64,000 bases of DNA from Marivita sp. (lineage in GTDB: Bacteria; Pseudomonadota; Alphaproteobacteria; Rhodobacterales; Rhodobacteraceae): positions 20,544 to 84,543 of the forward strand of contig NZ_JAIPUT010000007.1 of assembly GCF_020055635.1 (NCBI RefSeq), read 5' to 3'. The notes under the pieces were generated by a model, which was not told where the DNA came from, did no database searches, and saw only the letters and a program-made list of their open reading frames with translations. The position numbers were made by a program, and so were the translations under genes. Shown here piece by piece: positions 7,233 to 64,000 of the stretch. How positions within the stretch are numbered: the first letter of the stretch is position 1; each line of letters begins with the position of its first letter.

Positions 7233-7245
7233 ACGGGGTTCTCCC

Positions 7246-7764: not shown

Positions 7765-7796
7765 GATGCGCGAACTCCGGGATCAGAAAGCTTTTC

Positions 7797-7922: not shown

Positions 7923-7936
7923 GGCACGGTCTTCGC
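7923..7936 (+). promoter_or_regulatory. Candidate sigma-54-type -24/-12 element upstream of fliF
   Basis: GGCACGGTCTTCGC against consensus TGGCACG-N4-TTGC. GGCACG is exact and the GG-N10-GC spacing is correct. About 105 nt upstream of the fliF GTG. Confidence 0.3.
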
Positions 7937-8041
7937 CGGTCTTGAGATTGTTCAAAACTCGGTATATCCCGTTTTTCGCAAGCCACTTCCAGGGAATCCG
8001 CGGGGAGTCCACGGGCGGGCAGGTCAGGCGCCGGGGGGCCC

Positions 8042-9682: not shown

Positions 9683-9687
9683 CGGAA

Positions 9688-10690: not shown

Positions 10691-10693
10691 CAG

Positions 10694-11524: not shown

Positions 11525-11546
11525 GCCCGAACACGCAGGCCCTCCC

Positions 11547-13136: not shown

Positions 13137-13499
13137 ATGAAATTCCCAAAGCTTCTCTTCACGACAGCCCTCAGCCTTTTGATGAGCGCCGGTCTTGCCG
13201 ATGACGAGCTTCTTGATCGTAACGGCTCCGGCACCTCAGTGCTGGTCGGTAAGTCTGGTGGCACAGGCATCATCGCGGGCCGTGACGTTGCCGACTTGGC
13301 GACGAATACAGAGCATCATCGCTCGTCAACGGAAATTGAAACACGTTCACCACCTTGCTGGATGACTCCGGCAACAAGCTTACAGGCCGGCGACTGGAAG
13401 CAAGTCGTCGTTGTGTCGGTCGGAACTGGCAACTTTTCCAGCACGACGCACCGCGCCTCCTCAAACTTGTCGGGGATCTCGCAAGAACCGCATGTTTAA
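13137..13499 (+). CDS. Short secreted protein with degenerate curlin-type repeats (possible CsgB-like nucleator or decaying paralog)
   Basis: The signal peptide MKFPKLLFTTALSLLMSAGLADD is homologous to those of the two following genes. The C-terminal LQAGDWKQVVVVSVGTGNFSSTTH fits Q-x-G-x-x-N-x-A-x-V-x-Q-x-G-x-G-N-x-A-x-x-x-Q at most fixed positions. Weak RBS. Confidence 0.45.
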   Translation: MKFPKLLFTTALSLLMSAGLADDELLDRNGSGTSVLVGKSGGTGIIAGRDVADLATNTEHHRSSTEIETRSPPCWMTPATSLQAGDWKQVVVVSVGTGNFSSTTHRASSNLSGISQEPHV

Positions 13500-13504
13500 C
13501 GTCC

Positions 13505-13527
13505 CCGGGAGCGGCCCACGCTCCCGG
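13505..13527 (+). terminator. GC-rich hairpin (9-bp stem, 5-nt loop) between curlin-like gene 1 and gene 2
   Basis: CCGGGAGCG-gccca-CGCTCCCGG, a perfect stem starting 6 nt after the TAA of gene 1. No U-tract follows, so it may be an attenuator or processing site rather than a classic terminator. Confidence 0.45.
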
Positions 13528-13563
13528 CATCTACCAACCTGAATTCTACAAGGGAGAATTACC

Positions 13564-15078
13564 ATGAAACTGTCCAGGCTTATCTTCACCACATCCACTG
13601 CGCTTGGCCTATCGATGACTGCGGTACTTGCAGATGGCAATGAAACCGAATTGGCACAATCCGGAAATGACAACTCGACGCTGATCGATCAGTCCCTTGC
13701 GACCAATTCCGACGTGGGTGTGCTGGGGTCCATTCCCGCGGCAACACAGAACGGCGATGACAACGTTCTCGTCATCAGCCAAGCCGGTGATGCCAACAGG
13801 ATTGCAAGTAACGCGGCGGCGGCAATTCTCCTTCAGGATGGCACTGAAAACAATGGCAGCATCGAGCAAAGCCGCACGATCCCGCCGACATCACCCTCCA
13901 CAAGCACGGGCAACGTGGTGACCGTGATGCGCCAAGAGGGTGCTGGCAATGATGTGACGATTTCGCAAACGAGCGACCAGAATCGCAACTATGCAAACGT
14001 TCGGCAGAACAATGCCGGCAATAGTGCAGATGGCAATACGGCCAGTGTGACTCAGGTCAACACCGCTCCGGACAACCAGAATGCCAACCGCAACGAAGTG
14101 TCCTCTGGCCCAGGTCACGTTGGCGGGGTTGTCCAGAACGGCAAGCGCAACACGGCGGCGGTTGAGCAGCAGGGTCAGGGCCTCCGCCTGAGACTGTTGG
14201 AGCAAGTTGGTGATGATAACGATGCGAATGTTGTTCTCACCGGCGTTGACAATGGACAGCCGGATTTGACTGTCGGTGGGCCGTCGGGCTCTGTCGGTGC
14301 GTTTAGCCGCGAGGTCTTGCAACTTGGCGATCTGAACCAGACCGACGTGAACATTTCAGGGATGGCCAATGCCTACGGCGTGAAGCAGCAGGGCAACGAA
14401 AACGATGCATTGGGCATCATGGTGACGGGGAACAACAACTCTGTCGGAGTAGGTCAATTCGGAGACCTCAACGAGATCTCTCTTGCGACCGTGGCCGGCG
14501 ACCTGAACAGCATTGGGTTCGAACAGGTCGGAAATGAGAATTTCGCTTTGGCCACAGTGAACGGAAACCAGAACGAGGCACTTGTCAGCCAGGTTGGTGA
14601 CCGCAATGAAACGCGCCTCGACGTCGACGGCAATTTCAACGAGGCCGAACTGAAAGTCACCGGAGACGACAACTATCTCAACGGATTTCAGAAACAGCGC
14701 CGCAACGACATGTTCGTGACCCTCGACGGGAGCGGCAACAACAATCTGCTTGCCTCTGACCCCTTCAACGGATCGGCGTTGATTGCACGTGATTTCGTGC
14801 GCGCCAGCGGCGGATTGAAAAGCGCGGATTTCCGGCGTGGCGACCTGATCCAGATCGGATATGGAGGATCGGGCAATTCGAGAAACAGCGTGTTCATCAC
14901 CGGCACGAATGCCGACAACAACAGCTTCGCCACCTACCAGAACGGCAATCGCAACGCGACTGTCGGGTCGATCACGGATGGAACCATGAACCAGGCCGTC
15001 GTTGCCCAGATCGGCGATGACAACAGTGCCACCTTCAGCCAGGTCGGCAATGGCAACAACGCCGGGATCATCCAATAG
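13564..15078 (+). CDS. Secreted curlin-repeat protein (CsgA-like functional-amyloid subunit), 504 aa
   Basis: RBS GGGAGA. Signal peptide MKLSRLIFTTSTALGLSMTAVLA. Repeats throughout of the type NxAxxxQxGxxNxA (e.g. VGQFGDLNEISLATVAGDLNSIGFEQVGNENFALATVNGNQNEALVSQVGDRNE). Ends ...AVVAQIGDDNSATFSQVGNGNNAGIIQ. Confidence 0.85.
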   Translation: MKLSRLIFTTSTALGLSMTAVLADGNETELAQSGNDNSTLIDQSLATNSDVGVLGSIPAATQNGDDNVLVISQAGDANRIASNAAAAILLQDGTENNGSIEQSRTIPPTSPSTSTGNVVTVMRQEGAGNDVTISQTSDQNRNYANVRQNNAGNSADGNTASVTQVNTAPDNQNANRNEVSSGPGHVGGVVQNGKRNTAAVEQQGQGLRLRLLEQVGDDNDANVVLTGVDNGQPDLTVGGPSGSVGAFSREVLQLGDLNQTDVNISGMANAYGVKQQGNENDALGIMVTGNNNSVGVGQFGDLNEISLATVAGDLNSIGFEQVGNENFALATVNGNQNEALVSQVGDRNETRLDVDGNFNEAELKVTGDDNYLNGFQKQRRNDMFVTLDGSGNNNLLASDPFNGSALIARDFVRASGGLKSADFRRGDLIQIGYGGSGNSRNSVFITGTNADNNSFATYQNGNRNATVGSITDGTMNQAVVAQIGDDNSATFSQVGNGNNAGIIQ

Positions 15079-15167
15079 GCCGTAGAACCATCCGCGCGAA
15101 ATGCGCCTATCGACGAAAGTGTCCGGTCTCGCATCGGGCGCTTCAACAAAATTGACCTCAAAAGGAT

Positions 15168-17246
15168 TTGAAAATGACCATAACCAGACTTCTTCTTACA
15201 TCGAGCAGCGCCCTTGTCCTGTCGCTGTCTGCAGCGCTTGCCGATGATAATTTCGTCCTTCTGGAACAGGAAGGCGAATCCAACTCGGCTCTGATCGACC
15301 AGACCGGCGCAGACAATTCAAGCGTGGGGCATGTCAAGCCGACACCGTCCGGCCCGGGCGGGATTGTGGATGGCATCGCAAAGCAGGTGGGTGATGACAA
15401 CGTCATGAACATCACGCAAATCGGCAGTGCCAACAGGGTTGCACCCGGTCCCTTCAACGATGGTCGTGCCGATCAGCTGGGCGATGGCAATACTCTTTCG
15501 ATCGTGCAGGCCCGCGATCCAGCCGCGACCGGCTCTTCCGGAAACCGTGTCGGAACGACCATTCAGGTCGGTGACAATCACGAGGCTAACATCACCCAGA
15601 CAACATCGGATCGCCCCAACAATGCCAACCTGCGCCAAAGCAACGGCGGCAGCGGCGAAGACGGGAACACCGCGTCCATCGTCCAGAATAACACCGGGAG
15701 CGGGCAGAACAACATCCTGACCTCGACCACCGATGGCGGCGTGGCCCAGAATGGCCAGCGCAACATCGCCTCGGTCGAACAGGACGGCACCCGGCTGCGC
15801 CTGCGCCGCCTGAGACAGATCGGCGATGACAACAGCGCGAATGTTCTGATGACCGGCGAAAGCAACGGCGTGGCACCCTACGAACTGACCGATGGCTTCT
15901 CGGGGGCCAGCAATGCCAGCGCTTCGGAAGTGAACCAGACCGGCGACCTCAACGTGACGGCGCTCTCGATTGGGGGAACGGGCAATTCCTATGGCGTGGA
16001 GCAGGCAGGGAACGAGAACCTTGCCCTTGGCATCGTCGTGACAGGCAATGATAATTCGGTCGGTGTTGGCCAGTTCGGCGACCGGAACGAAATCGACCTT
16101 GCCACCGTGGCCGGGACTCGCAACAGCACCGGGATCAACCAGACAGGCGATGACAACTTCGCCTCGACCGATGTGTCCGGAGACGACAACGATACGCTGT
16201 CGCGGCAAACGGGTGACTTCAACACGGCCACGGCGACAATTGGCGGCGGTGGAGACAACACCACCTTGATCGACCAGACCGGCAATCTGAACATCGGCAC
16301 GGCAACCGTCATCAGTGGGGGTGGCAACACCACCAATGTCCTTCAGGATGGCACCGCGAACATCGGCACCGCAGATATTTCCGGCGGCGGCGTCAACACC
16401 ACCAATGTCGATCAGACCGGTAATGCGAATATCGGTACGGCAGGGGTTGGGGGTGGCGGAAACAACACCACGGACGTCCTGCAGAATGGCAACGCGAACA
16501 TCGGCACGGCGGATATTTCCGGCGGTGGAGACAACACCACCACGGTCGATCAGATGGGCAATCTTAATATCGGTACGGCACTTGTCGGCGGCGGTGGCGA
16601 CAACGTCACCGACGTCCTGCAGGACGGCTTCGGAAACTTCGGTCTGGCCGATATCGGCAGCGCCGGCGGGAACACCACCCTGCTCGATCAGCTTGGCGAG
16701 GCCAATGACGGCAGGATCACCATCAGTGGCGGCGGCGACAACGATACGACGCTGTTGCAGGATGGTTTCCGAAACGTTGCAACTGCCGACGTCGGTGGTG
16801 CTGGGAACAACGTCCTGATGGCGTCGATGACCGGCAACTTGAACCGCCTGCAATTGGAGCAGGGCGGTGCTGGCAACAACAACATGGACGTGTCGGTGAC
16901 GGGGGACCGGAACAACTACACCTCGCCAACGCTCACCTTGCCGTTCGTCGGGACCGTCCCGATCAACCCGCCGTCGTCACCAACATTCTCGGGTGCCGCG
17001 CTGACCGCCAACGGCACCGGTCTTGGCAAAGGCGACCTGTTCCAGAACGGCGATGGCAACTCTCTGTTGCTTGCGGTTGCAGGGGACCTGAACAGCTTTG
17101 CCACGCTGCAAGACGGTAACGGCAACAGCATCGACGGTTCGGTCTCGGGCAACATGCACCAGGCCGTCGTGACGCAGGTCGGCATGAGCAATGTCGCCAA
17201 CTTTACCCAGAGCGGCATCGGCAACAATGCTGGCATTTCCCAGTAA
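15168..17246 (+). CDS. Secreted curlin-repeat protein (CsgA-like), 692 aa, with a Gly-rich 23-aa tandem array
   Basis: RBS AAGGA. Signal peptide MKMTITRLLLTSSSALVLSLSAALA. Same architecture as the previous gene plus 10 extra repeats. Ends ...AVVTQVGMSNVANFTQSGIGNNAGISQ. Confidence 0.85.
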   Translation: MKMTITRLLLTSSSALVLSLSAALADDNFVLLEQEGESNSALIDQTGADNSSVGHVKPTPSGPGGIVDGIAKQVGDDNVMNITQIGSANRVAPGPFNDGRADQLGDGNTLSIVQARDPAATGSSGNRVGTTIQVGDNHEANITQTTSDRPNNANLRQSNGGSGEDGNTASIVQNNTGSGQNNILTSTTDGGVAQNGQRNIASVEQDGTRLRLRRLRQIGDDNSANVLMTGESNGVAPYELTDGFSGASNASASEVNQTGDLNVTALSIGGTGNSYGVEQAGNENLALGIVVTGNDNSVGVGQFGDRNEIDLATVAGTRNSTGINQTGDDNFASTDVSGDDNDTLSRQTGDFNTATATIGGGGDNTTLIDQTGNLNIGTATVISGGGNTTNVLQDGTANIGTADISGGGVNTTNVDQTGNANIGTAGVGGGGNNTTDVLQNGNANIGTADISGGGDNTTTVDQMGNLNIGTALVGGGGDNVTDVLQDGFGNFGLADIGSAGGNTTLLDQLGEANDGRITISGGGDNDTTLLQDGFRNVATADVGGAGNNVLMASMTGNLNRLQLEQGGAGNNNMDVSVTGDRNNYTSPTLTLPFVGTVPINPPSSPTFSGAALTANGTGLGKGDLFQNGDGNSLLLAVAGDLNSFATLQDGNGNSIDGSVSGNMHQAVVTQVGMSNVANFTQSGIGNNAGISQ
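16242..16915 (+). repeat. In-frame tandem repeat, about 69-bp (22-25 aa) period, roughly 10 copies, inside the 692-aa curlin-like gene
   Basis: Units such as GGGDNTTLIDQTGNLNIGTATVIS / GGGNTTNVLQDGTANIGTADIS / GGGNNTTDVLQNGNANIGTADIS. GGCGGTGGAG recurs at 16245 and 16521, which is 276 bp or 4 units. Confidence 0.85.
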
Positions 17247-17286
17247 ACTCTGAGTGTGCCGCGAACGTCACGCGTATCCATGGAGG

Positions 17287-17305
17287 GCCCGGCATCGAGC
17301 CGGGC
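17287..17305. terminator. Hairpin between the convergent curlin gene 3 and hemN
   Basis: GCCCGGC-atcga-GCCGGGC (7-bp stem), 41 nt after the curlin gene stop. Weak T-tract (tcttcc). Confidence 0.35.
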
Positions 17306-17459
17306 TCTTCCAACATTTTCAGGGCGAATTTCAAGTCAACCCAATGAGGCATTTCCGATGACCTGCTGAGCACGTCCGGAAGGGGCGAACCTGCCATTGT
17401 TCATCGTTGCGCCCATCAAGGAAGAAGCGGTCCCCGCATCTGTGTCTATTCGCGACAGT

Positions 17460-18815
17460 TCAAGACGCGCGCGAATACCGTACGCCTTCGGGCACGTGTT
17501 GATCCAGGACAGACGCGATGATGCGGGTCAGCGGGCGACCCTCCGGCGCGATGTGCAGGCGCGTGCCGTCCAGCGTGACGTAAGGCGCAAAGCGCGCCGC
17601 CATGGTGCCCAGTGACGGGGCAAGACCATAGGCGACCGGGCCGAACTCTGATCCCAGGTCATCCAGATCAAGCGTGAATGCACACATCAACCGTTCGATC
17701 GCCCGCGCGCGCAACTGGTCTTCGGCCGTCATGTGATAGCCGCGGGCGCCGGGAAACGCGCCGGTGTTGATCCGCTGGATGTAGGCGGCGGTCGCAGGAG
17801 CGTTCTGCACGTAGCCGTCCGGGAAGCGCGAAATCGAGGAGGCCCCGAGACCGATCAGGGTCTGGCATGTGTCGGCGGTGTAGCCCTGGAAATTCCGGCG
17901 CAGATGTCCGGTGGTCAGGGCCTGCGCGAGGTCATCCTCGGGGCGGGCGAAATGGTCGATGCCGATGGCGGTCAGGCCGGCCTCGACAAACCGCTCGGCC
18001 GCGCGGGTGGCAAGGGCATAGCGCGCCAGATCATCCGGCAGGGCGGCCTCGTCGATCAGCTTCTGCCGCTTCGACACCCAGGGAACATGCGCATAGCCGA
18101 AAAGCGCCACGCGGTCAGGCGCGAAGGTCAGGACCTTGTCGATGGTGTCTTCGATACGCGCGAGGCTCTGGTGTGGCAGACCGTAGACCAGGTCGGTGTT
18201 GAGCGACGTGACACCCGCCGCGCGCAGATCGTCGACACATGTCCGTGTCACGTCAAAGGGCTGCTCTCTCCCGATGGCCTGCTGCACTTCGGGGTCGAAA
18301 TCCTGGATCCCGATGGAGGCGCGCGTCAGACCTTCGGTGGCAAGTGCTTCAATCTTGGACCGGTCGACCATGATGGGATCGATCTCGACTGAGAACTCGA
18401 ACTCTTCGGCGGGGGGAAACACGGCCCTGATCGCCTTGGCGAGGCGGTGGATGAGCGGCGGCGGAAGGATCGTCGGTGTCCCGCCTCCCCAATGCAGCCG
18501 GCCCATGCGCAGGCCGCCCGGAATGGTTTGCCGCAGCAGCTCGAGTTCCGCCTCCAGCGTCCCGATATAGCTTTCCACCGGGCCAAGCGTCCGCGTGCCC
18601 TGGGTGTGGCAGGCGCAGAACCAGCACAAGCGTTCACAAAACGGAATGTGGATGTAGACCGAGACCGGGTCCGCCGGATCGAGCCCTTCCAGAGCGGCTT
18701 TTTGAAACGCGCCCCCGGTCTGGGGCGAGAAGACAGCCGCGGTCGGATAGGACGTGTAGCGCGGCACGCGCGCATCGAAAAGGCCAAGCGCCTTGAGTGT
18801 GTCTATGTGTTCCAT
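17460..18815 (-). CDS. hemN: Oxygen-independent coproporphyrinogen III oxidase (radical SAM) HemN
   Basis: Start taken at MEHIDTLKALGLFDARVPRYTSYPTA (CAT at 18813-18815). Radical-SAM motif IHIPFCERLCWFCAC. 451 aa. Confidence 0.9.
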   Translation of the reverse strand: MEHIDTLKALGLFDARVPRYTSYPTAAVFSPQTGGAFQKAALEGLDPADPVSVYIHIPFCERLCWFCACHTQGTRTLGPVESYIGTLEAELELLRQTIPGGLRMGRLHWGGGTPTILPPPLIHRLAKAIRAVFPPAEEFEFSVEIDPIMVDRSKIEALATEGLTRASIGIQDFDPEVQQAIGREQPFDVTRTCVDDLRAAGVTSLNTDLVYGLPHQSLARIEDTIDKVLTFAPDRVALFGYAHVPWVSKRQKLIDEAALPDDLARYALATRAAERFVEAGLTAIGIDHFARPEDDLAQALTTGHLRRNFQGYTADTCQTLIGLGASSISRFPDGYVQNAPATAAYIQRINTGAFPGARGYHMTAEDQLRARAIERLMCAFTLDLDDLGSEFGPVAYGLAPSLGTMAARFAPYVTLDGTRLHIAPEGRPLTRIIASVLDQHVPEGVRYSRAS

Positions 18816-18849
18816 GCGCTCTGTGTAAACGGGTACGAAACCCTCATCT

Positions 18850-18863
18850 TTGCACCAGATCAA
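18850..18863. promoter_or_regulatory. FNR/FnrL-type box upstream of hemN
   Basis: TTGCA-CCAG-ATCAA against consensus TTGAT-N4-ATCAA (9/10). Centred about 41 nt upstream of the hemN ATG. Confidence 0.4.
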
Positions 18864-19160
18864 ATTGCGCGATGAAAATACGCGGCCCGTCGAAGCCGTC
18901 ATCTGCCCTTGTGTCAGCCAGTGTGAGCCTGATCCGGGTCGATCTGTTGATCATGCGCGACAATATTCGCGCGATTTCGGCCATCTTGCCGGACGGCATT
19001 CGGGCCCGTTTCAATGGCGACGATCCAAAGCCCAGGCCCTATGCCGGGTCCGAAGGCACGCTGGCCTATTTTACCGGGCTTGAGTTGAGCCTTGTACATC
19101 TGCCGGGCAAAAAGGTCACTGGCATCTGCCATTTTTCCGGACTTCCCCGCGGGGGGGCCT

Positions 19161-20048
19161 CTATACGGAGCGCACGGTATTGCTGAGCGTCCCGATCCCT
19201 TCAATTTCGCAAACCACTGTGTCGCCATCCTTGAGGAATTGCGGTGGATCCATCGCGTAACCGACACCCGACGGCGTGCCCGTGGCGATCAGATCGCCGG
19301 GTTCCAGCGTCAGACCCTCGGACAGCGACGCGATCAGCGTAGGAATGTCGAAGATCATGTCTTTCGTGTTGCCGTCCTGGCGCTGGTCGCCATTGACCTT
19401 GAGGCCGATGGAAAGCGCCTGGGGATCGCTGATTTCATCGGCGGTCACGATGGCCGGGCCGATGGGACAGGATCCATCGAGACCCTTGCCCTTGAAATAC
19501 TGTCCGCCGTGGCGGCGTTGGACGTCGCGTGCGGTGACGTCGTTCAGGATCGTGTAGCCGAAGACATGGTCCATCGCGTCGGCCTTTGCGATGTTGCGCC
19601 CGGCCTTGCCGATCACCACTGCCAACTCCACCTCGTAGTCGATCGATGTCGAAACGTCCGGGAAAATCAGGACATCTCCATCCGGAGGCACGACGGACGT
19701 TGGTGGCTTGGTAAAGAAGACCGGATGTTCCGTCGCGCCGACCTTCTGGTTCTGCGCGCGGTCTCCCTCGGCAATATGCTCGGCGTAATTGCGGCCGACG
19801 CAGAAAACGTTTTTCAGCGGTTTCGGGATCGGCGCCAGAAGCGTGACAGCGTTGCGGATCGTCTTGTCTGCATGCTGGCCGTCTTCGGCCTCTGCCCACA
19901 GTTTGCGGACCGCGTCGAGCGCCGGTGTCCCGCCCTCGATCAGGGATTGCATCGTCCCCGCGGCTTGAGAGATGTCCAACATGCTGCCGTCAGACAGGTA
20001 TGCAACACAGATTGCATTGCCGCCCACGGATATCGTAGCCAATCGCAC
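19161..20048 (-). CDS. Fumarylacetoacetate hydrolase (FAH) family protein
   Basis: GTG start at 20048, preceded by GGGAGGA 7-8 nt upstream. Motifs NVFCVGRNYAEH, DYEVELAVVIGK and GDLIATGTPSGVG are typical of FAH / 2-keto-4-pentenoate hydratase-like enzymes. Confidence 0.85.
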   Translation of the reverse strand: MRLATISVGGNAICVAYLSDGSMLDISQAAGTMQSLIEGGTPALDAVRKLWAEAEDGQHADKTIRNAVTLLAPIPKPLKNVFCVGRNYAEHIAEGDRAQNQKVGATEHPVFFTKPPTSVVPPDGDVLIFPDVSTSIDYEVELAVVIGKAGRNIAKADAMDHVFGYTILNDVTARDVQRRHGGQYFKGKGLDGSCPIGPAIVTADEISDPQALSIGLKVNGDQRQDGNTKDMIFDIPTLIASLSEGLTLEPGDLIATGTPSGVGYAMDPPQFLKDGDTVVCEIEGIGTLSNTVRSV

Positions 20049-56843: not shown

Positions 56844-57611
56844 TTACGGCAGGACGTCAAAGCCCTGACGCTCGAACGCCTCCTGCGCCTCAGGGCCGCG
56901 GAGATAGTCGAGGAAGGCGGCTTCGGCCTCGGTATCGCGGTTCGCCAGATCGGCAGCGGGATAGACGATGGGCGGGTGCGCGTCGTGCGGAAAGGCTCCA
57001 ACGACCGTCACGCCGTCCTCGGCCACAGCATCTGTCGCGTACACGATACCGTAAGGTGCCTCACCCGTCGCCACGAAGGCCAGCGCAGACCGTACATTGT
57101 CGGCTTGCGCAACATGCGGCGCCACGTCGTTCCAGATCCCGAGGCTTTCCAGCGCCGCCTTGCCATAGATGCCGGCAGGAACCGCATCGACCAGCGCCAT
57201 GGCCAGCTTGCCATCGCCCAGCAGACCGGCAAGGTCCGTCCCACGCGTCAACGCGACCGGCGCTGCGTCCACATCCGCTGCAATCAAGACGATGGAATTG
57301 CTCAGAAGGTCAAACCGCGTGCCCGCTTCGACAAGGCCGTCAGCCTCGAGCACATCCATCCAGTCCGGGTTTGCAGAAATGAAGATATCGGCTGGTGCGC
57401 CCTGCTGTATTTGTCGGGCAAGCGCCGACGACCCCGCAAGCGAGACGACAAGGTCATGACCTGTCGCGGTCTCGAACCTGTCTTCGATCTCGGCCATGGC
57501 ATTTGCCATGCTGGCCGCGGCAAAGACGGTGACCTGATCCGCCTGCGCGAACGCAGGCACGGCGCCAGAAAGCATTGCCGCGGCAGCACGGATCGACAGG
57601 TGCTTGAACAT
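56844..57611 (-). CDS. modA: Molybdate ABC transporter substrate-binding protein ModA
   Basis: Start MFKHLSIRAAAAMLSGAVPAFA (signal peptide). VTVFAAASMANAMAEIEDRFE...LVVSLAGSSALARQIQQGAPADIFISAN. Confidence 0.85.
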   Translation of the reverse strand: MFKHLSIRAAAAMLSGAVPAFAQADQVTVFAAASMANAMAEIEDRFETATGHDLVVSLAGSSALARQIQQGAPADIFISANPDWMDVLEADGLVEAGTRFDLLSNSIVLIAADVDAAPVALTRGTDLAGLLGDGKLAMALVDAVPAGIYGKAALESLGIWNDVAPHVAQADNVRSALAFVATGEAPYGIVYATDAVAEDGVTVVGAFPHDAHPPIVYPAADLANRDTEAEAAFLDYLRGPEAQEAFERQGFDVLP

Positions 57612-57630
57612 GGCGGGCCCTTCCGACTTT

Positions 57631-57652
57631 GATATGTTCCGCAGAACATATC
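57631..57652. promoter_or_regulatory. Perfect 9-bp-arm palindrome between modE and modA (candidate Mo-box / ModE operator)
   Basis: GATATGTTC-cgca-GAACATATC read directly. 20-41 nt upstream of the modA ATG. Confidence 0.45.
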
Positions 57653-57679
57653 GCAATGCCGGCCAAAGCCTGTCAAGCG

Positions 57680-58060
57680 TTATTCCCGGTCGGAAATATC
57701 CCTCAGCAACCCGCGCAACGCCTCAAGACGTGACCCACCGCCTTGCGTGGCTTCGGTTTCGAAGGCGCGGTACTGTGCCAGCACTTCGCGACCAAGCTTG
57801 GTCAGGACAGCCCCGCCGCCGCCCGGACCGCCGCGCGTACTGTCCACGAGCGGCGCCTGGAACATGGCATTGAGCGCGCCGATCAGTTCCCATGCGCGCT
57901 TGTAGCTCATACCCATCTCGCGGCCTGCAGCAGCGATCGACCCGCAACGATCGACATGCTCCAGCAGTTCTGCCTTTCCCGGCCCCAGCATTTCATCCTC
58001 GCCAAAGACGATCCGGATGCGCAAGCGCGGCTCTGAGTGGCGTTCTGTCTCTGACGGCAT
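57680..58060 (-). CDS. modE: ModE-like regulator, N-terminal HTH domain only (no Mop domains)
   Basis: Start MPSETERH (CAT at 58058-58060). LGPGKAELLEHVDRCGSIAAAGREMGMSYKRAWELIGALN matches the ModE N-domain. 126 aa, against the roughly 260-aa full-length proteins as I recall them. Confidence 0.7.
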   Translation of the reverse strand: MPSETERHSEPRLRIRIVFGEDEMLGPGKAELLEHVDRCGSIAAAGREMGMSYKRAWELIGALNAMFQAPLVDSTRGGPGGGGAVLTKLGREVLAQYRAFETEATQGGGSRLEALRGLLRDISDRE

Positions 58061-58398
58061 GGCGCAGTTTATGCCGCGTTTGAATGGCTGCGGCAAGCGC
58101 GGCATCAAGACGTGCGCGCCCGGCTCCGAATCCAGGCCTTCGGCACCCCGGCCATCGCAAAACCGCCATATGGTCGCCGCAGTCGCATAGAAATCTGGCC
58201 CCAATTCGCAGCTAAACCCGCGCTTGGGGGTGTCTGTCCTGTGCTGTCCTGCCCATGCACCAAGGATATCGCCGCAGGATTGTAAGGTAATTCCAGAGTG
58301 TGTGTTTTGACGGCTGCCACATTGTTTTCGGACAGATTGAAGTCCGCGCGCGCTCCACTCCCAGGTTTCACTGGCAGCCCGGTTGAGGAAGCGTAACG

Positions 58399-61300
58399 AT
58401 GGCCACATACACAGTCACCACGTCGAACTGGAATTCGACGGCATTCTGGAGCGGGATCTTCGAGTCCGCGTCAGGGCATACGCTCGATTTTTCGGGTCTC
58501 GGCGCTGGCTTCACCCTCGACAGCAACGCGTTCACCGGGATCATCACGATGTCGGACGGCGCGACCACCTTTACCGTGGGCGAGGCCGGTGTCACCGGCA
58601 CCGACGCCAATTTCGGCGGCACAACGCAACTGGACTATTTCACCACCATTTCTGGAACGCAGGGCGATGATACCGCCGACGGCACATCGGCCGACGACGT
58701 GCTGGACGGCAATGCCGGAGATGACCTTTTCTGGGGCGGTGATGGCGCCGACACGTTTTACGGCAATAGCGGCGAGGACTGGCTGATCGGTCAGGCGGGT
58801 GACGACCTGGCCTATGGCGGCGCGGACAATGACAACCTCCATGGCGATGATGGCGACGACCGGTTGTACGGCGAAACCGGCGACGACACTCTCGATGGCG
58901 GGGCTGGCGCGGATTCCCTCTATGGCGGCGCCGGGGCTGACCTGATCTATGGCGGCGACGGCGATGACAATCTGGAAGGCGGCTGGGAAGACGCCGCTGC
59001 CGACACGATCGAGGGACATGCGGGCAATGACCTGATCTTCGGCTACGGCGGCGGCGACTCGCTATTGGGCGGTACCGGCGACGACTGGATCGATGGCGGC
59101 AACGGTGGCGACGACCTGCAGGGCGGCGCGGATCAGGATCGTATTGTAGGCGACCTCGGCAGCGACACGATCACGGGCAACACCGGCTATGACATCCTGA
59201 CCGGTGGCGAAGGCGCCGACAGCATCGACGGCGGCAACGATGCCGACCAGATCTGGGGCAATGCCGGAGACACGATCGTCGGCGGCGAAGGCGGGGACGA
59301 CAACGATACGCTCTATGTTTCCAATGTCGATTTCATCACCTACACGACCGCCGAAAGCGGGACGGTCACGTTCAACTCGGGCGACACGCTATCCTTTACC
59401 GAGATCGAGCAGGTCGTCGAGTTGACTCCGGATGGCGTGGTGGACGGGACTGCGAGTGCCGACGAGATCGGCCAGTTCTATGTCGATGCCGATGGCGAAT
59501 GGATCGACAATGGCGATGCCATCGGCGAAAGCGACGCCGACAGCGTGCGCGCCGGCGATGGCAACGATGCGATCTGGTCCGGCGACGGTGACGACACCGT
59601 CCATGGCGAGGGTGGCGACGACGAAATCTATCTTGGCACCGGCAACAACGTCGGCTTCGGCGGCGCGGGCGCCGACACCATCGATGGCAATTGGCAGAAC
59701 GACACCATCTCGGGGGATGATTTCGTCGCCACAGGGCCGAATCTGATCGTCAACGGATCCTTCGAGGATACGACGGGCATGTCCTCGGTCAGCTACGGCT
59801 ATGCCGATTGGGACGGCAACACGCCAAGCTGGACGGACCAGAACGGCACTCGCATCGACTACCACGATGACGGGCGCGGCGGTCTGAACGCCACAGATGG
59901 CGCGAACTGGATGGACATGGAAGCGTCCACCGGTCAGCACAACGTCATCAGTCAGACCGTCGCCGGGGTCAGCGACGGGCAGGTCTACGTCCTGACCTTC
60001 GACGCCGCCGACAGCGCGAATGGCAGCGATGGCACCACTGCCGATGCGCAACTCCAGGTGATCTGGAACGGCGATGCCGTGGGCACGATTGACGCCAGCG
60101 ACGGCAGCTGGACCAGCTACGAATTTCACCTGATAGGTGGGTCTGGCGACGGGTCGAACACGCTGAGCTTTGCCGGGCTCGGAGGAAATGATGCGATCGG
60201 CGTCGCGCTCGACAACGTGCAGATGTACGAGGCGGCAGAGGCGGCGGGCGGTGACGCCGACCTGATCCTCGGCTTTGATGGCGCCGACGACCTGATGGGC
60301 GGCGCGGGCAACGACACGATCATCGCGGGCACCGGCAATGACGAGGTCGTGGCAGGCTCCGGCGATGACAGCGTCGCCGGTGATAGCGGCGCCGACACGA
60401 TCTATGGCGGCACGGGCGACGACACGATCGACGCCGGGGCCGATGACGACATCGTCTGGAGCGGCGAGGGCGCGGACAGCATCCTTGGCGGCCAAGGAAA
60501 TGACACCCTCGACGGCGGTGCGGGCGACGACACCATCGACGGCGGTGACAACGTCGACCAGATTTTCGGTGGCCAGGGCGGCGACAGCATCTCGGGTGGC
60601 GCGAACAATGACTTCATCCTTGGCGATGGTCAGGTCTACACGATAGGCGACCATGCCTCGGGCGGCGGCACGGCGACGACCCTGACGGTCACCAACAGCG
60701 CCGACGGCCCGATCGAGCTGTGGTGGATCAATGGCGCAGGTGGCTTGCAGTTCTATCGCACGATCCAGCCCGGCGAAACCTATTCCCAAGCCACGTTCGA
60801 AGACCATAACTGGGTCCTGCGGGACGAGAACGGCTTTGACCTCGAACTGATCGAGGGTGCGCCGAACCAGACGGTCAACTACGGCGCCGAAGGGCTGAAT
60901 GACAGCATCGACGGCGGCGACGCCAACGACATTATCTATGGCCAGTTCGGCGACGACACCATCGACGGCGGGAACGGCGCCGACCTGATCTATGGTGGGG
61001 CCGGCAATGACAGCATCCTCACCGGCAATGCCAGTGACACGATCTATGGAGGCACGGGCAACGACACCATCGACGTCGGCCTCGGGCTGGACCTGGCCTA
61101 TGGCGAGGAAGGCGACGACCTTCTGATCGACGGCACGGGCGGGCCCGAAGCCGCCACGCTCTACGGCGGTGACGGTAATGATACGATCCAGTCCGGGACC
61201 GGTGGCGCGACCGCCTCTGCCGAGTATTACGGCGACGCGGGCGACGACCGTTTCGAGGATCGCGGCGGCACCAACCAGACGTTCACGGGTGGCACCGGCA

Positions 61301-64000
61301 GCGACACCTATGTCGTGCTGAACGGTATCGGCAACGACACCGTCACCGGTGGCGAGGATGTGGGCGGTACCGATACCGACGTGATCGACCTGTCCGCAAT
61401 GGGCGAAGGCGTCACCGTCACCTATACCGGCGACGAGGCCGGGACGATCACCGACGGCACCAGCACGCTCACCTTCTCGGAGATCGAGCAGATCATCCTG
61501 ACCGACGAGGCCGACGTCGTGGATGCGACGGCCGATCCCAACGGCGTCACCTTCGACGCGGCGGGCGGCAATGACAGCGTCATCGGCAGTGCCGGCAATG
61601 ACAGCATCGACGGCGGCGCGGGCGATGACACCCTGCGCGGTGGCGACGGTAACGACACGCTGACCGGCGGCGACGGAACGAACGACCTGCACGGCGATGC
61701 GGGCAATGACAGCCTCGTCGGCAACAGCAGCGACGGCTTCACCAACATGGAAGGCGGTTCGGGCGCCGATACTCTCGATGGCAGCGCGGGCACGTGGGAT
61801 ATCGCGAGCTACTACACCTCCTCTACCGGGGTCACCGTCGATCTGACCGACGGGCTGGCCGAATTGGGCGGCGACGCGCAGGGCGACGTGCTGATCGGGA
61901 TCGAGCAGATCGACGGATCGAACCTGTTTGACGATGTCCTGATCGGTGATGCAGGCGTGACCGAACTCAAGGGTTTCGGCGGCGACGATACGCTGGTCTT
62001 GAATACTGCGGGCTCGGGCCTTGCTCTTGGCGGCGACGGGGCTGACACGGTCTTCGGCGGCCACGGCGACGATACCCTTTTTGGTGGCGATGGGAATGAC
62101 AGCCTGTTTGCTCGCGATGGGAACGACAGCCTTTATGGCGAAGCCGGCAACGACCGGTTGGAAGCGGGCGGCGGGACCAATCAGCTTGTCGATGGCGGTG
62201 AAGGCGATGACAGCCTGTTCAACGGAGGCGGTGACGGAACCGCAATCGGTGGCGACGGCGACGACTACATCTATGCCGACTCAGGCAATGACCAGCTGTT
62301 CGGCGACAGCGGCGACGATACGTTCGATCTGGACGACACCTGGGGCAGCTTCGGAAATGACACGATCATCGGTGGTGAAACCGGTGAGACGACCGGCGAT
62401 ACGCTGGATCTGAGTGGTGTCTCGCTCGGCACCACCCTCGACCTGACATATGCCGACCCCGAGGCCGGCACGGTCAGCGACGGCATCTCCACAGCGACCT
62501 TCTCGGAGATCGAGACGATCATCCTGAGCGGCGGCCGCGATACGATCTTGCTGGCGGATGGCTCCGGCAGCGATACGGTCAGCGGCTTCAACATGACCGA
62601 CAGCGGCGATGGGACGACGACCGACCAGCTTGACGTGACCAGCGTGACGGATGCCGGCGGCGCAATCGTCAACACCGGCGATGTTGTCGTGACCGACACC
62701 AATGGCGACGGCAGCGGCGATGCGATCCTGACCTTTCCGGGCGGCGAAAGCCTCACTCTGCTCGGTGTCTCTCCAGCCCAGCTGTCCACTCCTGCCCAGC
62801 TTGCCGCCATCGGGATTCCGGAACCCGATTTCATCGTCGAAGGCACCGCGGGCGCAGACCTGATCAACACGGGCTATACCGATGACCCCGAAGGCGACAT
62901 CGTTGACGGTGGGGATGCGGCGGATGGGTCGGACGACGATGTCATCGAGGCGGGCGACGGAAACGACACCGTCTTCGCCGGTCTGGGCGACGACTCGGTC
63001 CTGGGTGGAGAGGGCGATGACAGCCTCTCGGGTCAGGAAGGCAACGACACGATCTTCGGGGGCGGCGGAAACGACTCGATCCGGGGCAATGTCGGCGACG
63101 ACTTCCTTGATGGCGGCGACGGCAACGACACGATTGCCGGAGGCAGCGATGCGGACACGATCGTCGGTGGTCTTGGTGATGACTACCTCATTGGCGGCAT
63201 CGACATTTCGGGGGGCGACGGCAACGACACGATCGATGTCTTCGGCTCGAATGCCGTGGTTACCGGTGACGCTGGCGATGATCTGATCAGGCTGCTCAAC
63301 AACCCCGGGACCACCACCGTGACCGGTGGCGAAGCAGCGGAAGTGAACGGCGATACGCTCGACATGAGCGCCGCAACCAACAGCCTGATCGTCGATCTGA
63401 GCAATCCGGACCCCGAGAGCGGGACCGTGACGGACGGTTCCGACGTTCTGACCTTCTCTGAGATCGAGAACCTGATCCTTGGCGGCGGAGCCGATACCAT
63501 CGTGCTCGCCGACGGCGCTGGAAGCAATACGGTGTCGGGTTTCAACATGACCGACAGCGGCGATGGCACGACCATCGACCAGCTTGACGTGTCGGGCGTG
63601 ACGGATGCGGGCGGTGCCATTGTCAACACCGGCGATGTTGTCGTGACCGACACCAATGGCGACGGCAGCGGCGATGCGATCCTGACCTTTCCGGGCGGTG
63701 AAAGCCTCACTCTGCTCGGCGTCTCTCCAGCCCAGCTGTCCACCCCTGCCCAGCTTGCCGCCATCGGGATTCCGGAACCCGATTTCATCGTCGAGGGCAC
63801 GGCCAGTGCGGACCTGATCGACACCGGTTACACCGGCGATCCAGAAGGCGACCGGGTCGATGCTCTGGACAGTGCTTCGGGCACCAATGATGACATCATA
63901 GATGCCGGGGCGGGCAATGACACGGTTGTCGCGGGTCTGGGGGACGATCTGGTCTATGGCTCGACCGGCAATGACAGCCTGCTTGGCGGCGACGGCAATG
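58399..64000 (+). CDS. Giant secreted RTX-repeat (hemolysin-type Ca-binding) protein, 3'-truncated by the window end (at least 1867 codons)
   Basis: RBS GAGGAA, then ATG at 58399. Frame +1 was read codon by codon to 63999 with no stop. Dozens of GGxGxDxUx nonapeptides (e.g. GGAGNDTIIAGTGNDEVVAGSGDDSV). Not in the ORF track because it has no stop in the window. Confidence 0.85.
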   Translation, partial: MATYTVTTSNWNSTAFWSGIFESASGHTLDFSGLGAGFTLDSNAFTGIITMSDGATTFTVGEAGVTGTDANFGGTTQLDYFTTISGTQGDDTADGTSADDVLDGNAGDDLFWGGDGADTFYGNSGEDWLIGQAGDDLAYGGADNDNLHGDDGDDRLYGETGDDTLDGGAGADSLYGGAGADLIYGGDGDDNLEGGWEDAAADTIEGHAGNDLIFGYGGGDSLLGGTGDDWIDGGNGGDDLQGGADQDRIVGDLGSDTITGNTGYDILTGGEGADSIDGGNDADQIWGNAGDTIVGGEGGDDNDTLYVSNVDFITYTTAESGTVTFNSGDTLSFTEIEQVVELTPDGVVDGTASADEIGQFYVDADGEWIDNGDAIGESDADSVRAGDGNDAIWSGDGDDTVHGEGGDDEIYLGTGNNVGFGGAGADTIDGNWQNDTISGDDFVATGPNLIVNGSFEDTTGMSSVSYGYADWDGNTPSWTDQNGTRIDYHDDGRGGLNATDGANWMDMEASTGQHNVISQTVAGVSDGQVYVLTFDAADSANGSDGTTADAQLQVIWNGDAVGTIDASDGSWTSYEFHLIGGSGDGSNTLSFAGLGGNDAIGVALDNVQMYEAAEAAGGDADLILGFDGADDLMGGAGNDTIIAGTGNDEVVAGSGDDSVAGDSGADTIYGGTGDDTIDAGADDDIVWSGEGADSILGGQGNDTLDGGAGDDTIDGGDNVDQIFGGQGGDSISGGANNDFILGDGQVYTIGDHASGGGTATTLTVTNSADGPIELWWINGAGGLQFYRTIQPGETYSQATFEDHNWVLRDENGFDLELIEGAPNQTVNYGAEGLNDSIDGGDANDIIYGQFGDDTIDGGNGADLIYGGAGNDSILTGNASDTIYGGTGNDTIDVGLGLDLAYGEEGDDLLIDGTGGPEAATLYGGDGNDTIQSGTGGATASAEYYGDAGDDRFEDRGGTNQTFTGGTGSDTYVVLNGIGNDTVTGGEDVGGTDTDVIDLSAMGEGVTVTYTGDEAGTITDGTSTLTFSEIEQIILTDEADVVDATADPNGVTFDAAGGNDSVIGSAGNDSIDGGAGDDTLRGGDGNDTLTGGDGTNDLHGDAGNDSLVGNSSDGFTNMEGGSGADTLDGSAGTWDIASYYTSSTGVTVDLTDGLAELGGDAQGDVLIGIEQIDGSNLFDDVLIGDAGVTELKGFGGDDTLVLNTAGSGLALGGDGADTVFGGHGDDTLFGGDGNDSLFARDGNDSLYGEAGNDRLEAGGGTNQLVDGGEGDDSLFNGGGDGTAIGGDGDDYIYADSGNDQLFGDSGDDTFDLDDTWGSFGNDTIIGGETGETTGDTLDLSGVSLGTTLDLTYADPEAGTVSDGISTATFSEIETIILSGGRDTILLADGSGSDTVSGFNMTDSGDGTTTDQLDVTSVTDAGGAIVNTGDVVVTDTNGDGSGDAILTFPGGESLTLLGVSPAQLSTPAQLAAIGIPEPDFIVEGTAGADLINTGYTDDPEGDIVDGGDAADGSDDDVIEAGDGNDTVFAGLGDDSVLGGEGDDSLSGQEGNDTIFGGGGNDSIRGNVGDDFLDGGDGNDTIAGGSDADTIVGGLGDDYLIGGIDISGGDGNDTIDVFGSNAVVTGDAGDDLIRLLNNPGTTTVTGGEAAEVNGDTLDMSAATNSLIVDLSNPDPESGTVTDGSDVLTFSEIENLILGGGADTIVLADGAGSNTVSGFNMTDSGDGTTIDQLDVSGVTDAGGAIVNTGDVVVTDTNGDGSGDAILTFPGGESLTLLGVSPAQLSTPAQLAAIGIPEPDFIVEGTASADLIDTGYTGDPEGDRVDALDSASGTNDDIIDAGAGNDTVVAGLGDDLVYGSTGNDSLLGGDGN
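62377..64000 (+). repeat. 954-bp (318-aa) in-frame tandem module inside the RTX gene, at least 1.7 copies in the window
   Basis: GGTGAA... at 62374/62377 recurs at 63328/63331, and GGxTTCAACATGACCGACAGCGGCGATGG at 62584 recurs at 63538 (offset 954). About 300 bp (62575-62880 vs 63529-63834) is nearly identical. Confidence 0.85.

Follow-up and report, generated by a model that had tools for sequence, protein, structure and literature searches.

The right-hand end of a 64,000-nucleotide stretch of Marivita sp. DNA (contig NZ_JAIPUT010000007.1; hereafter the window) cuts through a giant open reading frame encoding RTX repeats. What does this gene encode once it is completed, and how would its product be exported and matured? 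The initial annotation had proposed a very large Ca-dependent adhesin or S-layer-like protein, secreted through a C-terminal type I signal lying beyond the window.

Reading frame and complete product

Translation of 58399-63999 (plus strand, frame +1) yielded 1,867 sense codons and no stop up to the window edge, as had been read before. From the local base composition, the chance of such a run is about 6e-24, and the remaining five frames over the region contain 4 to 66 stops each. Since an in-frame TGA (58384-58386) lies directly 5' of ATG 58399, this ATG is the earliest possible start, and the ribosome-binding site previously assigned to it is indeed present. The frame is missing from the ORF list, an absence already pointed out, because it runs past the window end. 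The main features are as follows.

58385..58390, plus strand: Shine-Dalgarno-like GAGGAA, 8 nt before the start codon and overlapped by the in-frame TGA (direct sequence reading)
58399..64000, plus strand: RTX-Hint_2 gene, 5' 78% (codons 1-1867 of 2379), from the match to P0001; the window end cuts the gene
59389..62064, minus strand: 891-aa antisense "shadow" ORF, not a gene (ORF list, codon-position GC, Pfam)

The complete product, P0001 (2,379 aa, 239 kDa), was recovered with 100% identity across 100% of the window part. Its gene has 512 further codons past the window, in line with the expected continuation, and for annotation purposes the truncation is an effect of the window and not biology. 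A misreading or sequencing error had been one worry of the initial annotation. Contigs from four other metagenome runs span the gene region, and those of run X1 cover 58000-62697 and 62811-64000, free of indels and with 0 to 3 substitutions in each piece. A search of a plasmid collection returned only weak matches to housekeeping genes, and thus no sign of a plasmid-borne locus. The gene was found in no RNA run in the search for RNA evidence.

The long minus-strand ORF is a codon-aligned antisense shadow of the RTX gene, as the initial annotation had held. Its GC content at codon positions 1, 2 and 3 (0.816/0.479/0.648) mirrors that of the plus frame (0.648/0.485/0.785), and a Pfam search with its 891 residues gave no match. 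Reference genes (five other window ORFs, four of them with Pfam matches) show GC3 of 0.71-0.78 and GC1 of 0.62-0.72. We rejected this ORF as a gene, and it should be discarded from the annotation.

RTX blocks, caps and a tandem cassette

The part of the gene inside the window is organized as follows (all on the plus strand).

58399..58707, plus: non-RTX N-terminal region (aa 1-103); MATYxVTxxNWNxxxFWSGI...GHTLDFS kept in orthologues; signal peptide absent
58708..59229, plus: RTX block 1, 15 GxDxUx cores (Pfam and core count)
59389..59409, plus: cap motif LSFTEIE, copy 1 (aa 331-337; motif search, as for copies 2 to 4)
59551..59730, plus: RTX block 2, 5 cores (core count, as for blocks 3 to 8)
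59743..60222, plus: DUF642-type insert (aa 449-608; PF04862, E 3.4e-7, 30.6 bits against a cut-off of 27)
60271..60594, plus: RTX block 3, 11 cores
60712..60834, plus: small non-RTX insert (aa 772-812; VHL-beta-like match, E 0.0046, below cut-off)
60940..61347, plus: RTX block 4, 9 cores
61468..61488, plus: cap motif LTFSEIE, copy 2 (aa 1024-1030)
61558..61779, plus: RTX block 5, 6 cores
61972..62370, plus: RTX block 6, 11 cores
62494..62514, plus: cap motif ATFSEIE, copy 3 (aa 1366-1372)
62515..62829, plus: linker beta-module, copy 1 (about aa 1373-1477; AF2 pLDDT 92.7)
62950..63291, plus: RTX block 7, 10 cores
63448..63468, plus: cap motif LTFSEIE, copy 4 (aa 1684-1690)
63469..63783, plus: linker beta-module, copy 2 (repeat comparison with copy 1)
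63904..64000, plus: start of RTX block 8 (whole block 22 cores, aa 1836-2067; the rest beyond the window)

The density of GGxGxDxUx nonapeptides reported earlier was borne out by the Pfam HemolysinCabind count then proposed as a check, with 24 stretches in the window part (E 6.8e-116; seven blocks, the eighth being cut by the window edge) and 34 in P0001 (E 6e-147). GxDxUx cores number 76 in the window part and 95, in 8 blocks, in the full protein. P0001 thus has the tandem calcium-binding nonapeptides of the RTX family, and also its acidic, Cys-poor composition (pI 4.05, 2 Cys) and lack of an N-terminal signal peptide. The first 120 residues contain no K or R and the maximum 19-residue Kyte-Doolittle mean across the protein is 1.02, so that neither a Sec signal, whose absence had been noted, nor a transmembrane segment is present.

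Some sources call homologues "hemolysin", and P0001 obtains strong E-values with the NCBIfam models RTX_toxin and EhxA, as would a pore-forming RTX cytolysin of the HlyA/CyaA type. However, its scores of 365 and 212 bits fall far short of the respective cut-offs of 1000 and 2000, and the matches are limited to the repeat region. The low hydrophobicity maximum leaves no pore-forming segment, P0001 carries only 6 Lys, and neither an rtxC acyltransferase nor an rtxCABD-type operon was seen among the 20 window ORFs scanned, which lie on the upstream side. We therefore rejected this reading as barely credible, and the "hemolysin" labels on homologues are unsupported.

Motifs of the form [LA][TS]F[ST]EIE occur at aa 331, 1024, 1366 and 1684 (nt 59389, 61468, 62494 and 63448). 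The initial annotation had listed four such modules, at positions within 6-12 nt of these, and had taken them for modules interrupting the repeats. The four copies stand; their reading as independent non-RTX domains does not. Each of them caps an RTX block and is homologous to the junction preceding the Hint cysteine in relatives. Copies 3 and 4 are each followed by a linker beta-module of the pattern "...QLDVxxxTDAGG..V...DVxVTD...AILTFPGGESLTLLGV...AAIGIP", and the two linker copies mark a 954-nt (318-aa) tandem cassette duplication. Its cores (62496-62795 and 63450-63749) share 88% identity, and the duplication is recent. The cap-plus-linker cassette gave a confident AF2 fold (pLDDT 92.7), similar in structure to the beta-roll domains at the C-termini of serralysins, CyaA and T1SS lipases. 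The internal cap copies suggest a possible mode of growth and diversification for such giants, in which RTX cassettes bounded by caps are duplicated and recombine between paralogues.

DUF642 is a family of lectin-like or carbohydrate-binding-like beta-sandwiches. In homologues, the inserts are of PA14, CBM_4_9, LamG or cadherin type, and the VHL-beta-type family is precomputed for several of them. A putative adhesin or S-layer-like role is plausible from the lectin-like insert here and the binding-type inserts in relatives. P0001 shares its very large size, predicted Ca dependence, RTX repeats and lectin-like ligand-binding inserts with the giant T1SS adhesins LapA, MpIBP and SiiE. In contrast to these, it lacks an N-terminal retention module, a long Ig-like extender and adjacent T1SS or LapG/LapD genes, and most of its length, not just a short C-terminal stretch, consists of RTX blocks. 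In NCBIfam scans, both the window protein and P0001 gave only sub-threshold, RTX-driven matches and no retention module, and Pfam found no Big, cadherin or VCBS domain in P0001. Membership in the LapA/MpIBP type was rejected.

A C-terminal Hint domain and its tail

The gene does continue beyond the window as predicted, but it does not end in a plain T1SS tail. P0001 terminates with a Hint_2 domain (PF13403, aa 2153-2291, Pfam E 3.7e-42) and an 86-aa tail; the junction reads ...SSFTFENTGVV followed by C2154, one of only two cysteines among 2,379 residues. An autoprocessing domain at this place means that the expected maturation differs from that initially envisaged. None of the curated T1SS-target-domain models of NCBIfam matches the P0001 C-terminus; we know of no reliable sequence consensus for T1SS signals. 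Classical T1SS RTX exoproteins (serralysins, family I.3 lipases, CyaA, AlgE R-modules) resemble P0001 in their capped GGxGxDxUx beta-roll blocks, in being acidic and Cys-poor, in lacking a Sec signal and in the C-terminal domains matched by the cassette model. They carry an uncleaved signal right after the last RTX block, whereas in P0001 a 140-aa Hint domain stands between the last cap and the tail, and P0001 has no catalytic or pore-forming domain and no linked T1SS genes among the window ORFs scanned.

The AF2 model of the Hint domain has a pLDDT >90 across aa 2154-2293. With this model, Foldseek retrieved the BIL domains 6y75 and 2lwy as best matches, then inteins (probability 1.00, TM normalized to the target 0.59-0.65), and a PDB sequence search with the P0001 C-terminus gave only marginal intein and BIL matches (E 0.07-0.6). 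Across 42 homologues C2154, F2155, S2227, Q2229, H2230, H2269, H2275, E2286 and S2287 are invariant. The block A nucleophile pair C2154-F2155 is also invariant in the 24 aligned homologues; in block B (V2226-S2227-P-Q2229-H2230) V, S, Q and H are invariant and P2228 nearly so (at least 90%), and the domain end ...G2282-x-x-x-E2286-S2287-F-x-P-G2291 is found in all aligned homologues.

The domain combines the Hint fold, an N-terminal Cys nucleophile and a block B (T/S)xxH histidine with the lack of a terminal His-Asn and of a +1 nucleophile, the four characters of B-type BIL domains. The last of these sets the B-type apart from inteins and A-type BIL domains (PMC7765530). BIL domains are described as cleaving rather than splicing, by an N-cleavage reaction resembling the one in inteins (PMC7765530, PMC7664689). 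Pfam Hint_2 would correspond to the "B-type BIL" of Amitai et al., an equation that we infer from motifs and not from a head-to-head comparison. The B-type domains (Amitai et al. 2003, Dassa et al. 2004, via PMC7765530 and PMC7664689) likewise sit in variable, non-conserved proteins of secreted type and are predicted to cleave, not to splice. The RTX-linked Hint differs in being always terminal, with only a conserved extension of about 50 aa behind it, and there is therefore no C-extein to ligate.

This helical extension after the Hint core is conserved family-wide (R2303, E2305, F2310, P2311, A2354), and the last ~45 aa of P0001 are non-conserved and modelled with low confidence. Cys1 is preceded by Val in P0001; in about 80% of members this place is taken by Ile or Pro. 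N-terminal cleavage in inteins is slowed or blocked when position -1 is beta-branched and above all when it is Pro, and the chemistry may therefore differ from canonical N-cleavage.

A family common in Rhodobacteraceae

P0001 belongs to a known RTX-Hint family that is very common in Rhodobacteraceae. Relatives with the RTX-cap-Hint-tail arrangement form 8,076 protein clusters at E<=1e-30 (to be read as at least 8,000), mostly from Rhodobacteraceae and annotated "Hint domain-containing protein". The unit is C-terminal in all of the 150 best matches. Among 235 members, RTX repeats lie upstream of the Hint domain in 232, the cap motif lies within 12 aa of Cys1 in 202 and the median distance from Cys1 to the end is 192 aa. 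The best orthologue, in a scan of one genome per species, is 81% identical and belongs to a Pelagibaca MAG; no synteny was detected between the window region upstream of the gene and six orthologue loci. Cultured bacteria with a homologue include Roseovarius mucosus DSM 17069 (P0093) and Roseovarius faecimaris (P0008). RTX-like proteins dominate several Roseobacter exoproteomes. In the literature, the combination was mentioned in passing in 2010 for nine predicted proteins (PMC3034196), and marine Rhodobacteraceae of the fast-responding kind are enriched in both RTX and Hint domains (PMC12487129). Our search of the literature returned no experimental study of secretion, cleavage or binding by RTX-Hint proteins.

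These family data bear on a polymorphic toxin, in which the Hint domain would be a pre-toxin releasing peptidase followed by a small C-terminal toxin, with an immunity gene downstream. Hint commonly precedes the C-terminal toxin in bacterial polymorphic toxin systems (PMC3417536), and P0001, too, is a large, putatively secreted repeat protein with Hint close to its C-terminus. However, the stretch behind the Hint core is only 86 aa long, and some 50 of these residues are conserved family-wide rather than polymorphic; most members end directly there, and the genes downstream, which for P0001 lie beyond the window, vary among relatives. With a conserved tail instead of a variable toxin domain behind Hint, we rejected this explanation as highly improbable.

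The proximity of cap and Cys1 raises another scheme, in which Hint would fold and cleave in the cytoplasm and expose the cap end as the true C-terminal type I signal (...F-x-E-I-E-N-I-I-COOH in most members, ...FTFENTGVV-COOH in P0001), autoprocessing gating export. In serralysin- and lipase-type substrates, the very C-terminus has to carry an acidic-plus-hydrophobic motif, and the cassette model resembles the C-terminal domains of these proteins. The pre-Hint region also aligns weakly with the end of the serralysin-type ZapA model (365-477 of 483, E 0.044). However, that match is non-significant and the likeness to the serralysin terminal motif is a putative one. Four copies of the cap motif moreover lie inside the protein, where none could act as a terminal signal, and the scheme leaves the conserved post-Hint tail without a role. 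We consider it quite improbable.

Proposed export and maturation

As the initial annotation had remarked, no T1SS genes lie upstream: HlyD, OEP and ABC_membrane were absent from the 20 ORFs scanned (the larger likely-coding ORFs of the window). No T1SS genes were found within 10 kb of the gene in relatives either, where a Pfam scan covered 90 neighbouring ORFs. In the Roseobacter group it is usual for RTX genes to lie apart from T1SS operons (PMC4511512). Our preferred reading, to which we give a probability of roughly 60%, is that P0001 leaves the cell through a T1SS, folds with Ca and is an extracellular, lectin-decorated protein from which the Hint domain severs the C-terminal unit; in this reading we infer the export, the cleavage and the adhesin role. 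The unfolded polypeptide would leave the cell C-terminus first through an unlinked type I secretion system, with the signal carried in the tail following the Hint domain. Extracellular Ca2+ would then fold the RTX blocks, starting at the caps. The Hint domain would make an N-to-S acyl shift at Val2153-Cys2154, and resolution of the thioester would release the 226-aa Hint-plus-signal unit from a passenger of roughly 2,150 aa. This passenger would bind ligands in a Ca-dependent, adhesin-like manner, outside the cell or on its surface.

Self-cutting after export, as predicted here, recalls the "clip-and-link" RTX proteins FrpC and ApxIVA, in which the cut can create a reactive C-terminus linking to other molecules (PMC3034196). 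Their chemistry is a Ca-dependent Asp-Pro cleavage with an anhydride intermediate, whereas that predicted for P0001 is a Cys thioester in the unrelated Hint fold; in FrpC the SPM is N-terminal to the RTX moiety, whereas Hint is at the end of P0001.

Another parallel is Hedgehog, where a C-terminal Hint domain releases an N-terminal secreted passenger by N-S acyl shift, as predicted for P0001, and where an additional region also lies behind the Hint core. By analogy, and in place of plain hydrolysis, a specific nucleophile could attack the Val2153-Cys2154 thioester. Examples would be a lipid, LPS or polysaccharide, an amine of peptidoglycan or a second protein, and the reaction would tie the C-terminus of the passenger covalently to the cell surface or matrix, as an anchor for an S-layer or adhesin. 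The catalytic set would be identical to that of simple cleavage, and Hedgehog itself needs only the N-S shift for cholesterol transfer (PMC7664689). The conserved helical extension could serve as an adduct-recognition region, and P0001 lacks the N-terminal retention module that anchors other T1SS adhesins. However, no nucleophile or partner gene is conserved beside the RTX-Hint gene, the searchable literature yielded no experimental bacterial precedent, and the extension could equally be a secretion signal. Hedgehog is moreover eukaryotic, with a sterol-recognition region and cholesterol as nucleophile, whereas an adduct in P0001 is hypothetical. We regard such a transfer as unlikely; if true, it would be a bacterial counterpart of Hedgehog lipidation.

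More broadly, cap (FxEIE), Hint_2 and ~50-aa helical tail might together constitute a self-removing or self-transferring secretion device, working by signal excision after export or by passing the thioester to a surface nucleophile, on giants that may grow by cassette duplication and recombination. We put this forward tentatively, as a rather unlikely possibility. The RTX-Hint architecture has gone from nine predicted proteins in 2010 to thousands of clusters now. If the Hint domain truly processes its passenger, it would define how a major group of surface and extracellular proteins of marine bacteria matures, and could yield a Ca-tolerant self-cleaving secretion tag.

Open reading frame and antisense shadow

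Translation of 58399–63999 (+) gave 1,867 sense codons and zero stops, in agreement with the open +1 frame of the initial annotation. An in-frame TGA at 58384–58386 rules out any earlier start than ATG 58399, which has GAGGAA (58385–58390) 8 nt 5′ of it. Given the base composition of the region, stops should recur about every 35 codons, and 1,867 codons would stay free of them with a probability of about 6e-24. Of the remaining five frames, four contain 46–66 stops, and the codon-aligned antisense frame contains 4. The mechanical ORF list omits the RTX frame, since it runs off the window end, and instead holds an 891-aa ORF at 59389–62064 (−), codon-aligned antisense to it. The GC1/2/3 values of this minus ORF (0.816/0.479/0.648) mirror those of the plus frame (0.648/0.485/0.785), while five other window ORFs used as references, four of which later matched Pfam families, have GC3 of 0.71–0.78 and GC1 of 0.62–0.72. 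No Pfam family matched its A/V/G/D/R-rich product. Mirrored composition and lack of a Pfam match thus identify it as a shadow, as originally proposed, and it was rejected as a gene.

Four independent metagenome runs yielded contigs over the region, so the open frame is not a peculiarity of one assembly. Those of run X1 span 58000–62697 and 62811–64000, free of indels and with 0–3 substitutions in each piece. In run X2, one contig is a base short at 63210 (depth 3.2 of 5.4) and carries 8 further differences; a related strain may be its source, with a frameshifted allele, a paralogue or a misassembly behind the missing base.

Immediately upstream, a listed 242-aa ORF (57680–58408, −) overlaps the RTX start codon and is over-extended, with a family match only in its last ~100 aa (57683–57985; HTH_1, E 6e-9). 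It is likely a short HTH-only, ModE-N-like regulator, adjoined by a ModA-like binding protein gene (56844–57656, SBP_bac_11). Shortening it to the HTH part leaves an intergenic region of ~410 nt 5′ of the RTX gene.

Cassette architecture and terminal Hint domain

A search of a 5.8-billion-protein collection returned a 2,379-aa protein (P0001) that matches the whole query at 100% identity. It is encoded on a 126-kb contig and marked as the product of the window itself; 78% of the gene thus falls inside the window. P0001 has a mass of 238.7 kDa and a pI of 4.05, with 369 Asp, 6 Lys and 2 Cys, one of the latter being the Hint nucleophile C2154 (Cys1).

Features of the RTX-Hint protein (slash, position before Cys1)
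aa 331, nt 59389 (+): cap [LA][TS]F[ST]EIE, copy 1, motif scan
aa 1024, nt 61468 (+): cap, copy 2, same scan
aa 1366, nt 62494 (+): cap, copy 3, same scan
aa 1684, nt 63448 (+): cap, copy 4, same scan
aa 1836–2067: RTX block 8, large
among the 512 residues beyond the window: serralysin-like stretch DTF...DTISDF...DRIDL
before the Hint domain: junction ...SSFTFENTGVV/C2154FTAGT
aa 2153–2291: Hint_2 domain (PF13403), Pfam E 3.7e-42
C-terminal end: post-Hint tail, 86 aa

The dense calcium-binding nonapeptides noticed initially were recovered as 24 HemolysinCabind stretches in the window part (Pfam, E 6.8e-116) and, by motif scan, as 76 GxDxUx cores grouped in seven blocks, an eighth being cut by the window end. 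A DUF642 domain lies at aa 449–608 (Pfam, 30.6 bits; cut-off 27). The non-RTX insert at aa 772–812 (60712–60834, +) gave a sub-threshold VHL-beta-like match (Pfam, E 0.005); this family is also precomputed for homologues P0006, P0020, P0039, P0044 and P0064, so the insert may be a real recurrent small β-domain. There is no K/R in the first 120 residues and no hydrophobic segment anywhere in the protein: Sec signal, Tat signal and membrane anchor are all absent, which extends the earlier statement on the Sec signal.

The four (L/A)(T/S)F(S/T)EIE modules described between the RTX repeats are real, but they are RTX β-roll caps rather than separate modules. A motif (T/N)F(S/T/D)(E/N)IE(N)(I/V)(I) directly precedes Cys1 in ~40 homologues (e.g. 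...TFSEIENII/CFTPGT), P0001 carrying the variant FTFENTGVV/C, and [FLIVMY]xx[IV]E occurs within 12 residues of Cys1 in 202 of 235 family members. Since the cap motif abuts Cys1 in most members, the pre-Hint junction and the internal modules are homologous. The predicted model of a cassette (aa 1308–1557, pLDDT 92.7) shows the cap motif as strands closing the RTX β-roll, followed by a β module of ~100 aa (QLDVS...TFPGGES...IGIP) and the next roll. Its nearest PDB matches, all with low global TM-scores, are C-terminal β-roll domains (T1SS lipases, CyaA RTX blocks, serralysins, AlgE R-modules).

Caps 3 and 4 belong to a tandem cassette duplication of 954 nt (318 aa), with 88% DNA identity between cores 62496–62795 and 63450–63749 and 72% protein identity over 250 aa. 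Short-read contigs of other metagenomes break at this duplication (62496–63749; gap of X1 at 62698–62810), and cassette copy number may be strain-variable or collapsed in assemblies. Homologues contain 0–8 internal caps, 0–5 linker modules and one Hint domain only; with such variable numbers, RTX-Hint proteins look like variable concatenations of cap-delimited cassettes. At least 5 RTX cores lie upstream of Hint in 232 of the 235 members, and Cys1 is 183–227 aa (median 192) from the protein end. In homologue P0030 (aa ~2118–2149) the Cys directly follows a TFPxGES...IGIP linker (...NSIGIP/CFTPGT) and not an FxEIE cap, so that Hint is joinable to either module boundary.

Across the aligned homologues (42 full-length, 24 C-terminal), Hint residues C2154, F2155, G2166, T2181, G2185, V2226, S2227, Q2229, H2230, E2240, Y2267, H2269, H2275, G2282, E2286, S2287 and G2291 are invariant. 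The intein block-A nucleophile and block-B (S)xxH are present; neither a terminal His-Asn nor a +1 nucleophile was found in these homologues. According to reviews, B-type bacterial intein-like (BIL) domains have such a signature, and their products are cleaved, not spliced (PMC7765530, PMC7664689). In an alignment-based AlphaFold model, pLDDT exceeds 90 across aa 2154–2293, and the top PDB matches are BIL domains 6y75 and 2lwy, then inteins (Foldseek probability 1.00). Three short helices follow the Hint core; the final ~45 residues are unconserved and modelled with low confidence. Every applicable sequence and structure test for an RTX protein and for a Hint_2/B-type BIL domain was positive, and membership of the RTX-Hint_2 family is virtually certain. 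Tests for a pore-forming RTX toxin, a LapA-type adhesin and a Hint-type polymorphic toxin were negative. The RTX-Hint_2 layout is shared by orthologues in MAGs of Pelagibaca, Marivita and Roseicyclus and in unclassified alphaproteobacteria, each a complete ORF (2,195–3,250 aa).

Family size and genomic context

A junction, Hint and tail profile run against 1.84 billion cluster representatives matched 26,381 proteins at E≤1e-3; tightening the threshold to E≤1e-10 left 19,872, and to E≤1e-30 left 8,076. The match ends at the protein C-terminus in 150 of the 150 best hits (258–4,079 aa). Source names include 'Hint domain-containing protein', 'Ca2+-binding RTX toxin-like protein' and 'hemolysin'. 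The last label is unsupported. For P0001, a pore-forming cytolysin is extremely improbable, given no hydrophobic domain and scores all far below family cut-offs. A polymorphic toxin is very improbable, since what follows Hint is a short, conserved tail.

A list by Linhartova et al. includes nine predicted RTX proteins whose homology to Hedgehog/intein domains was taken as 'suggesting autoprocessing' (PMC3034196), and a 2025 comparative study found bloom-forming Rhodobacteraceae enriched in Hint and RTX domains (PMC12487129). The architecture has thus been noticed before, and the unlisted giant gene is a correct call that adds a member to a known kind, populous and functionally uncharacterised; the literature searched held no experimental study of it.

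The window encodes flagellar export and motor proteins, two curlin-repeat proteins, transporters, haem uptake, an acyl-CoA synthetase, the ModA-like binding protein and the short HTH protein. The absence of upstream type I secretion system (T1SS) genes was borne out: no HlyD, TolC-like or ABC_membrane protein was detected among the 20 larger likely-coding ORFs scanned.

Flagellar gene cluster, 1210–12557
1210–3312: FlhA
4081–5247: FlhB
6267–7268 (−): FliM/N-like
7946–9679: FliF
11547–12557: FliG

Overlapping fliG is a 733-aa antisense ORF (10079–12280) without Pfam match, probably a further high-GC shadow. The adjacent curlin-repeat genes (13564–15075, +, 504 aa, Curlin_rpt E 1.5e-18; 15168–17243, +, 692 aa, E 1.8e-26) have the flagellar cluster on one side and a radical-SAM gene on the other. 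They occupy the lowest-GC, AT-skewed stretch (GC 0.55–0.58, 12–16 kb) and may form a functional-amyloid locus that this alphaproteobacterium acquired.

Flanks of six orthologue loci have nothing in common with the window, and the genes 3′ of RTX-Hint differ among relatives (flotillin, histidine kinase or NagA/SIS). No T1SS genes were found within 10 kb of the closest relatives' RTX-Hint genes. Among 90 neighbours of large RTX genes at ~30 Rhodobacterales loci, only 3 carry ABC_membrane, and neither an MFP nor an OMP family recurs. The published genome of Roseovarius mucosus gives the same picture, with >20 RTX genes dispersed away from a single complete T1SS locus (PMC4511512). One relative (locus L082) has tandem RTX-Hint_2 genes (5978–9712 and 10001–19207), the first with N-terminal Choice_anch_L and Big_9, an arrangement that suggests paralogues expanding locally and leaves room for cassettes to recombine. 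A 209-aa ORF without Pfam match lies ~1.1 kb 3′ of the gene of the closest relative, P0003, in two samples (L080, 18679–19308; L081, 8712–9341).

Proposed export and Hint cleavage

Domain content, conservation of catalytic residues, folds and the strictly terminal Hint unit are what the analysis shows. We infer a composite pathway, with a probability of roughly 0.6, of export, Ca-dependent folding, Hint cleavage and a binding passenger. Export would use an unlinked T1SS, as RTX repeats are near-exclusively associated with T1SS (PMC3034196) and the protein has no other signal. As T1SS substrates carry their signal at the very C-terminal end, it is expected in the conserved tail behind Hint, and the Hint unit would leave the cell first. 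That cytoplasmic cleavage instead unmasks the cap as the true terminal secretion signal is quite improbable, its sole sequence hint being an insignificant match to the end of a serralysin model.

After export, each RTX block would fold with Ca from its cap, by analogy with CyaA block V, in which RTX folding is Ca-driven from the cap. An N-S acyl shift at Val2153-Cys2154 and thioester resolution would then release the ~2,150-aa passenger, splitting off a 226-aa unit made up of Hint and signal. Residue −1 is Val in P0001 and Ile or Pro in ~80% of the 235 members; these residues are unfavourable to canonical intein N-cleavage, so the chemistry may be slow, under regulation or of an atypical kind. 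A Hedgehog-like reaction that hands the passenger to a surface nucleophile seems unlikely. For the released passenger, the DUF642 insert and the PA14, CBM_4_9, LamG, cadherin and 'choice-of-anchor L' inserts of homologues suggest a binding role. The window itself is ordinary; the issue lies at the level of the family, where the role of a terminal Hint domain on a T1SS substrate is testable.
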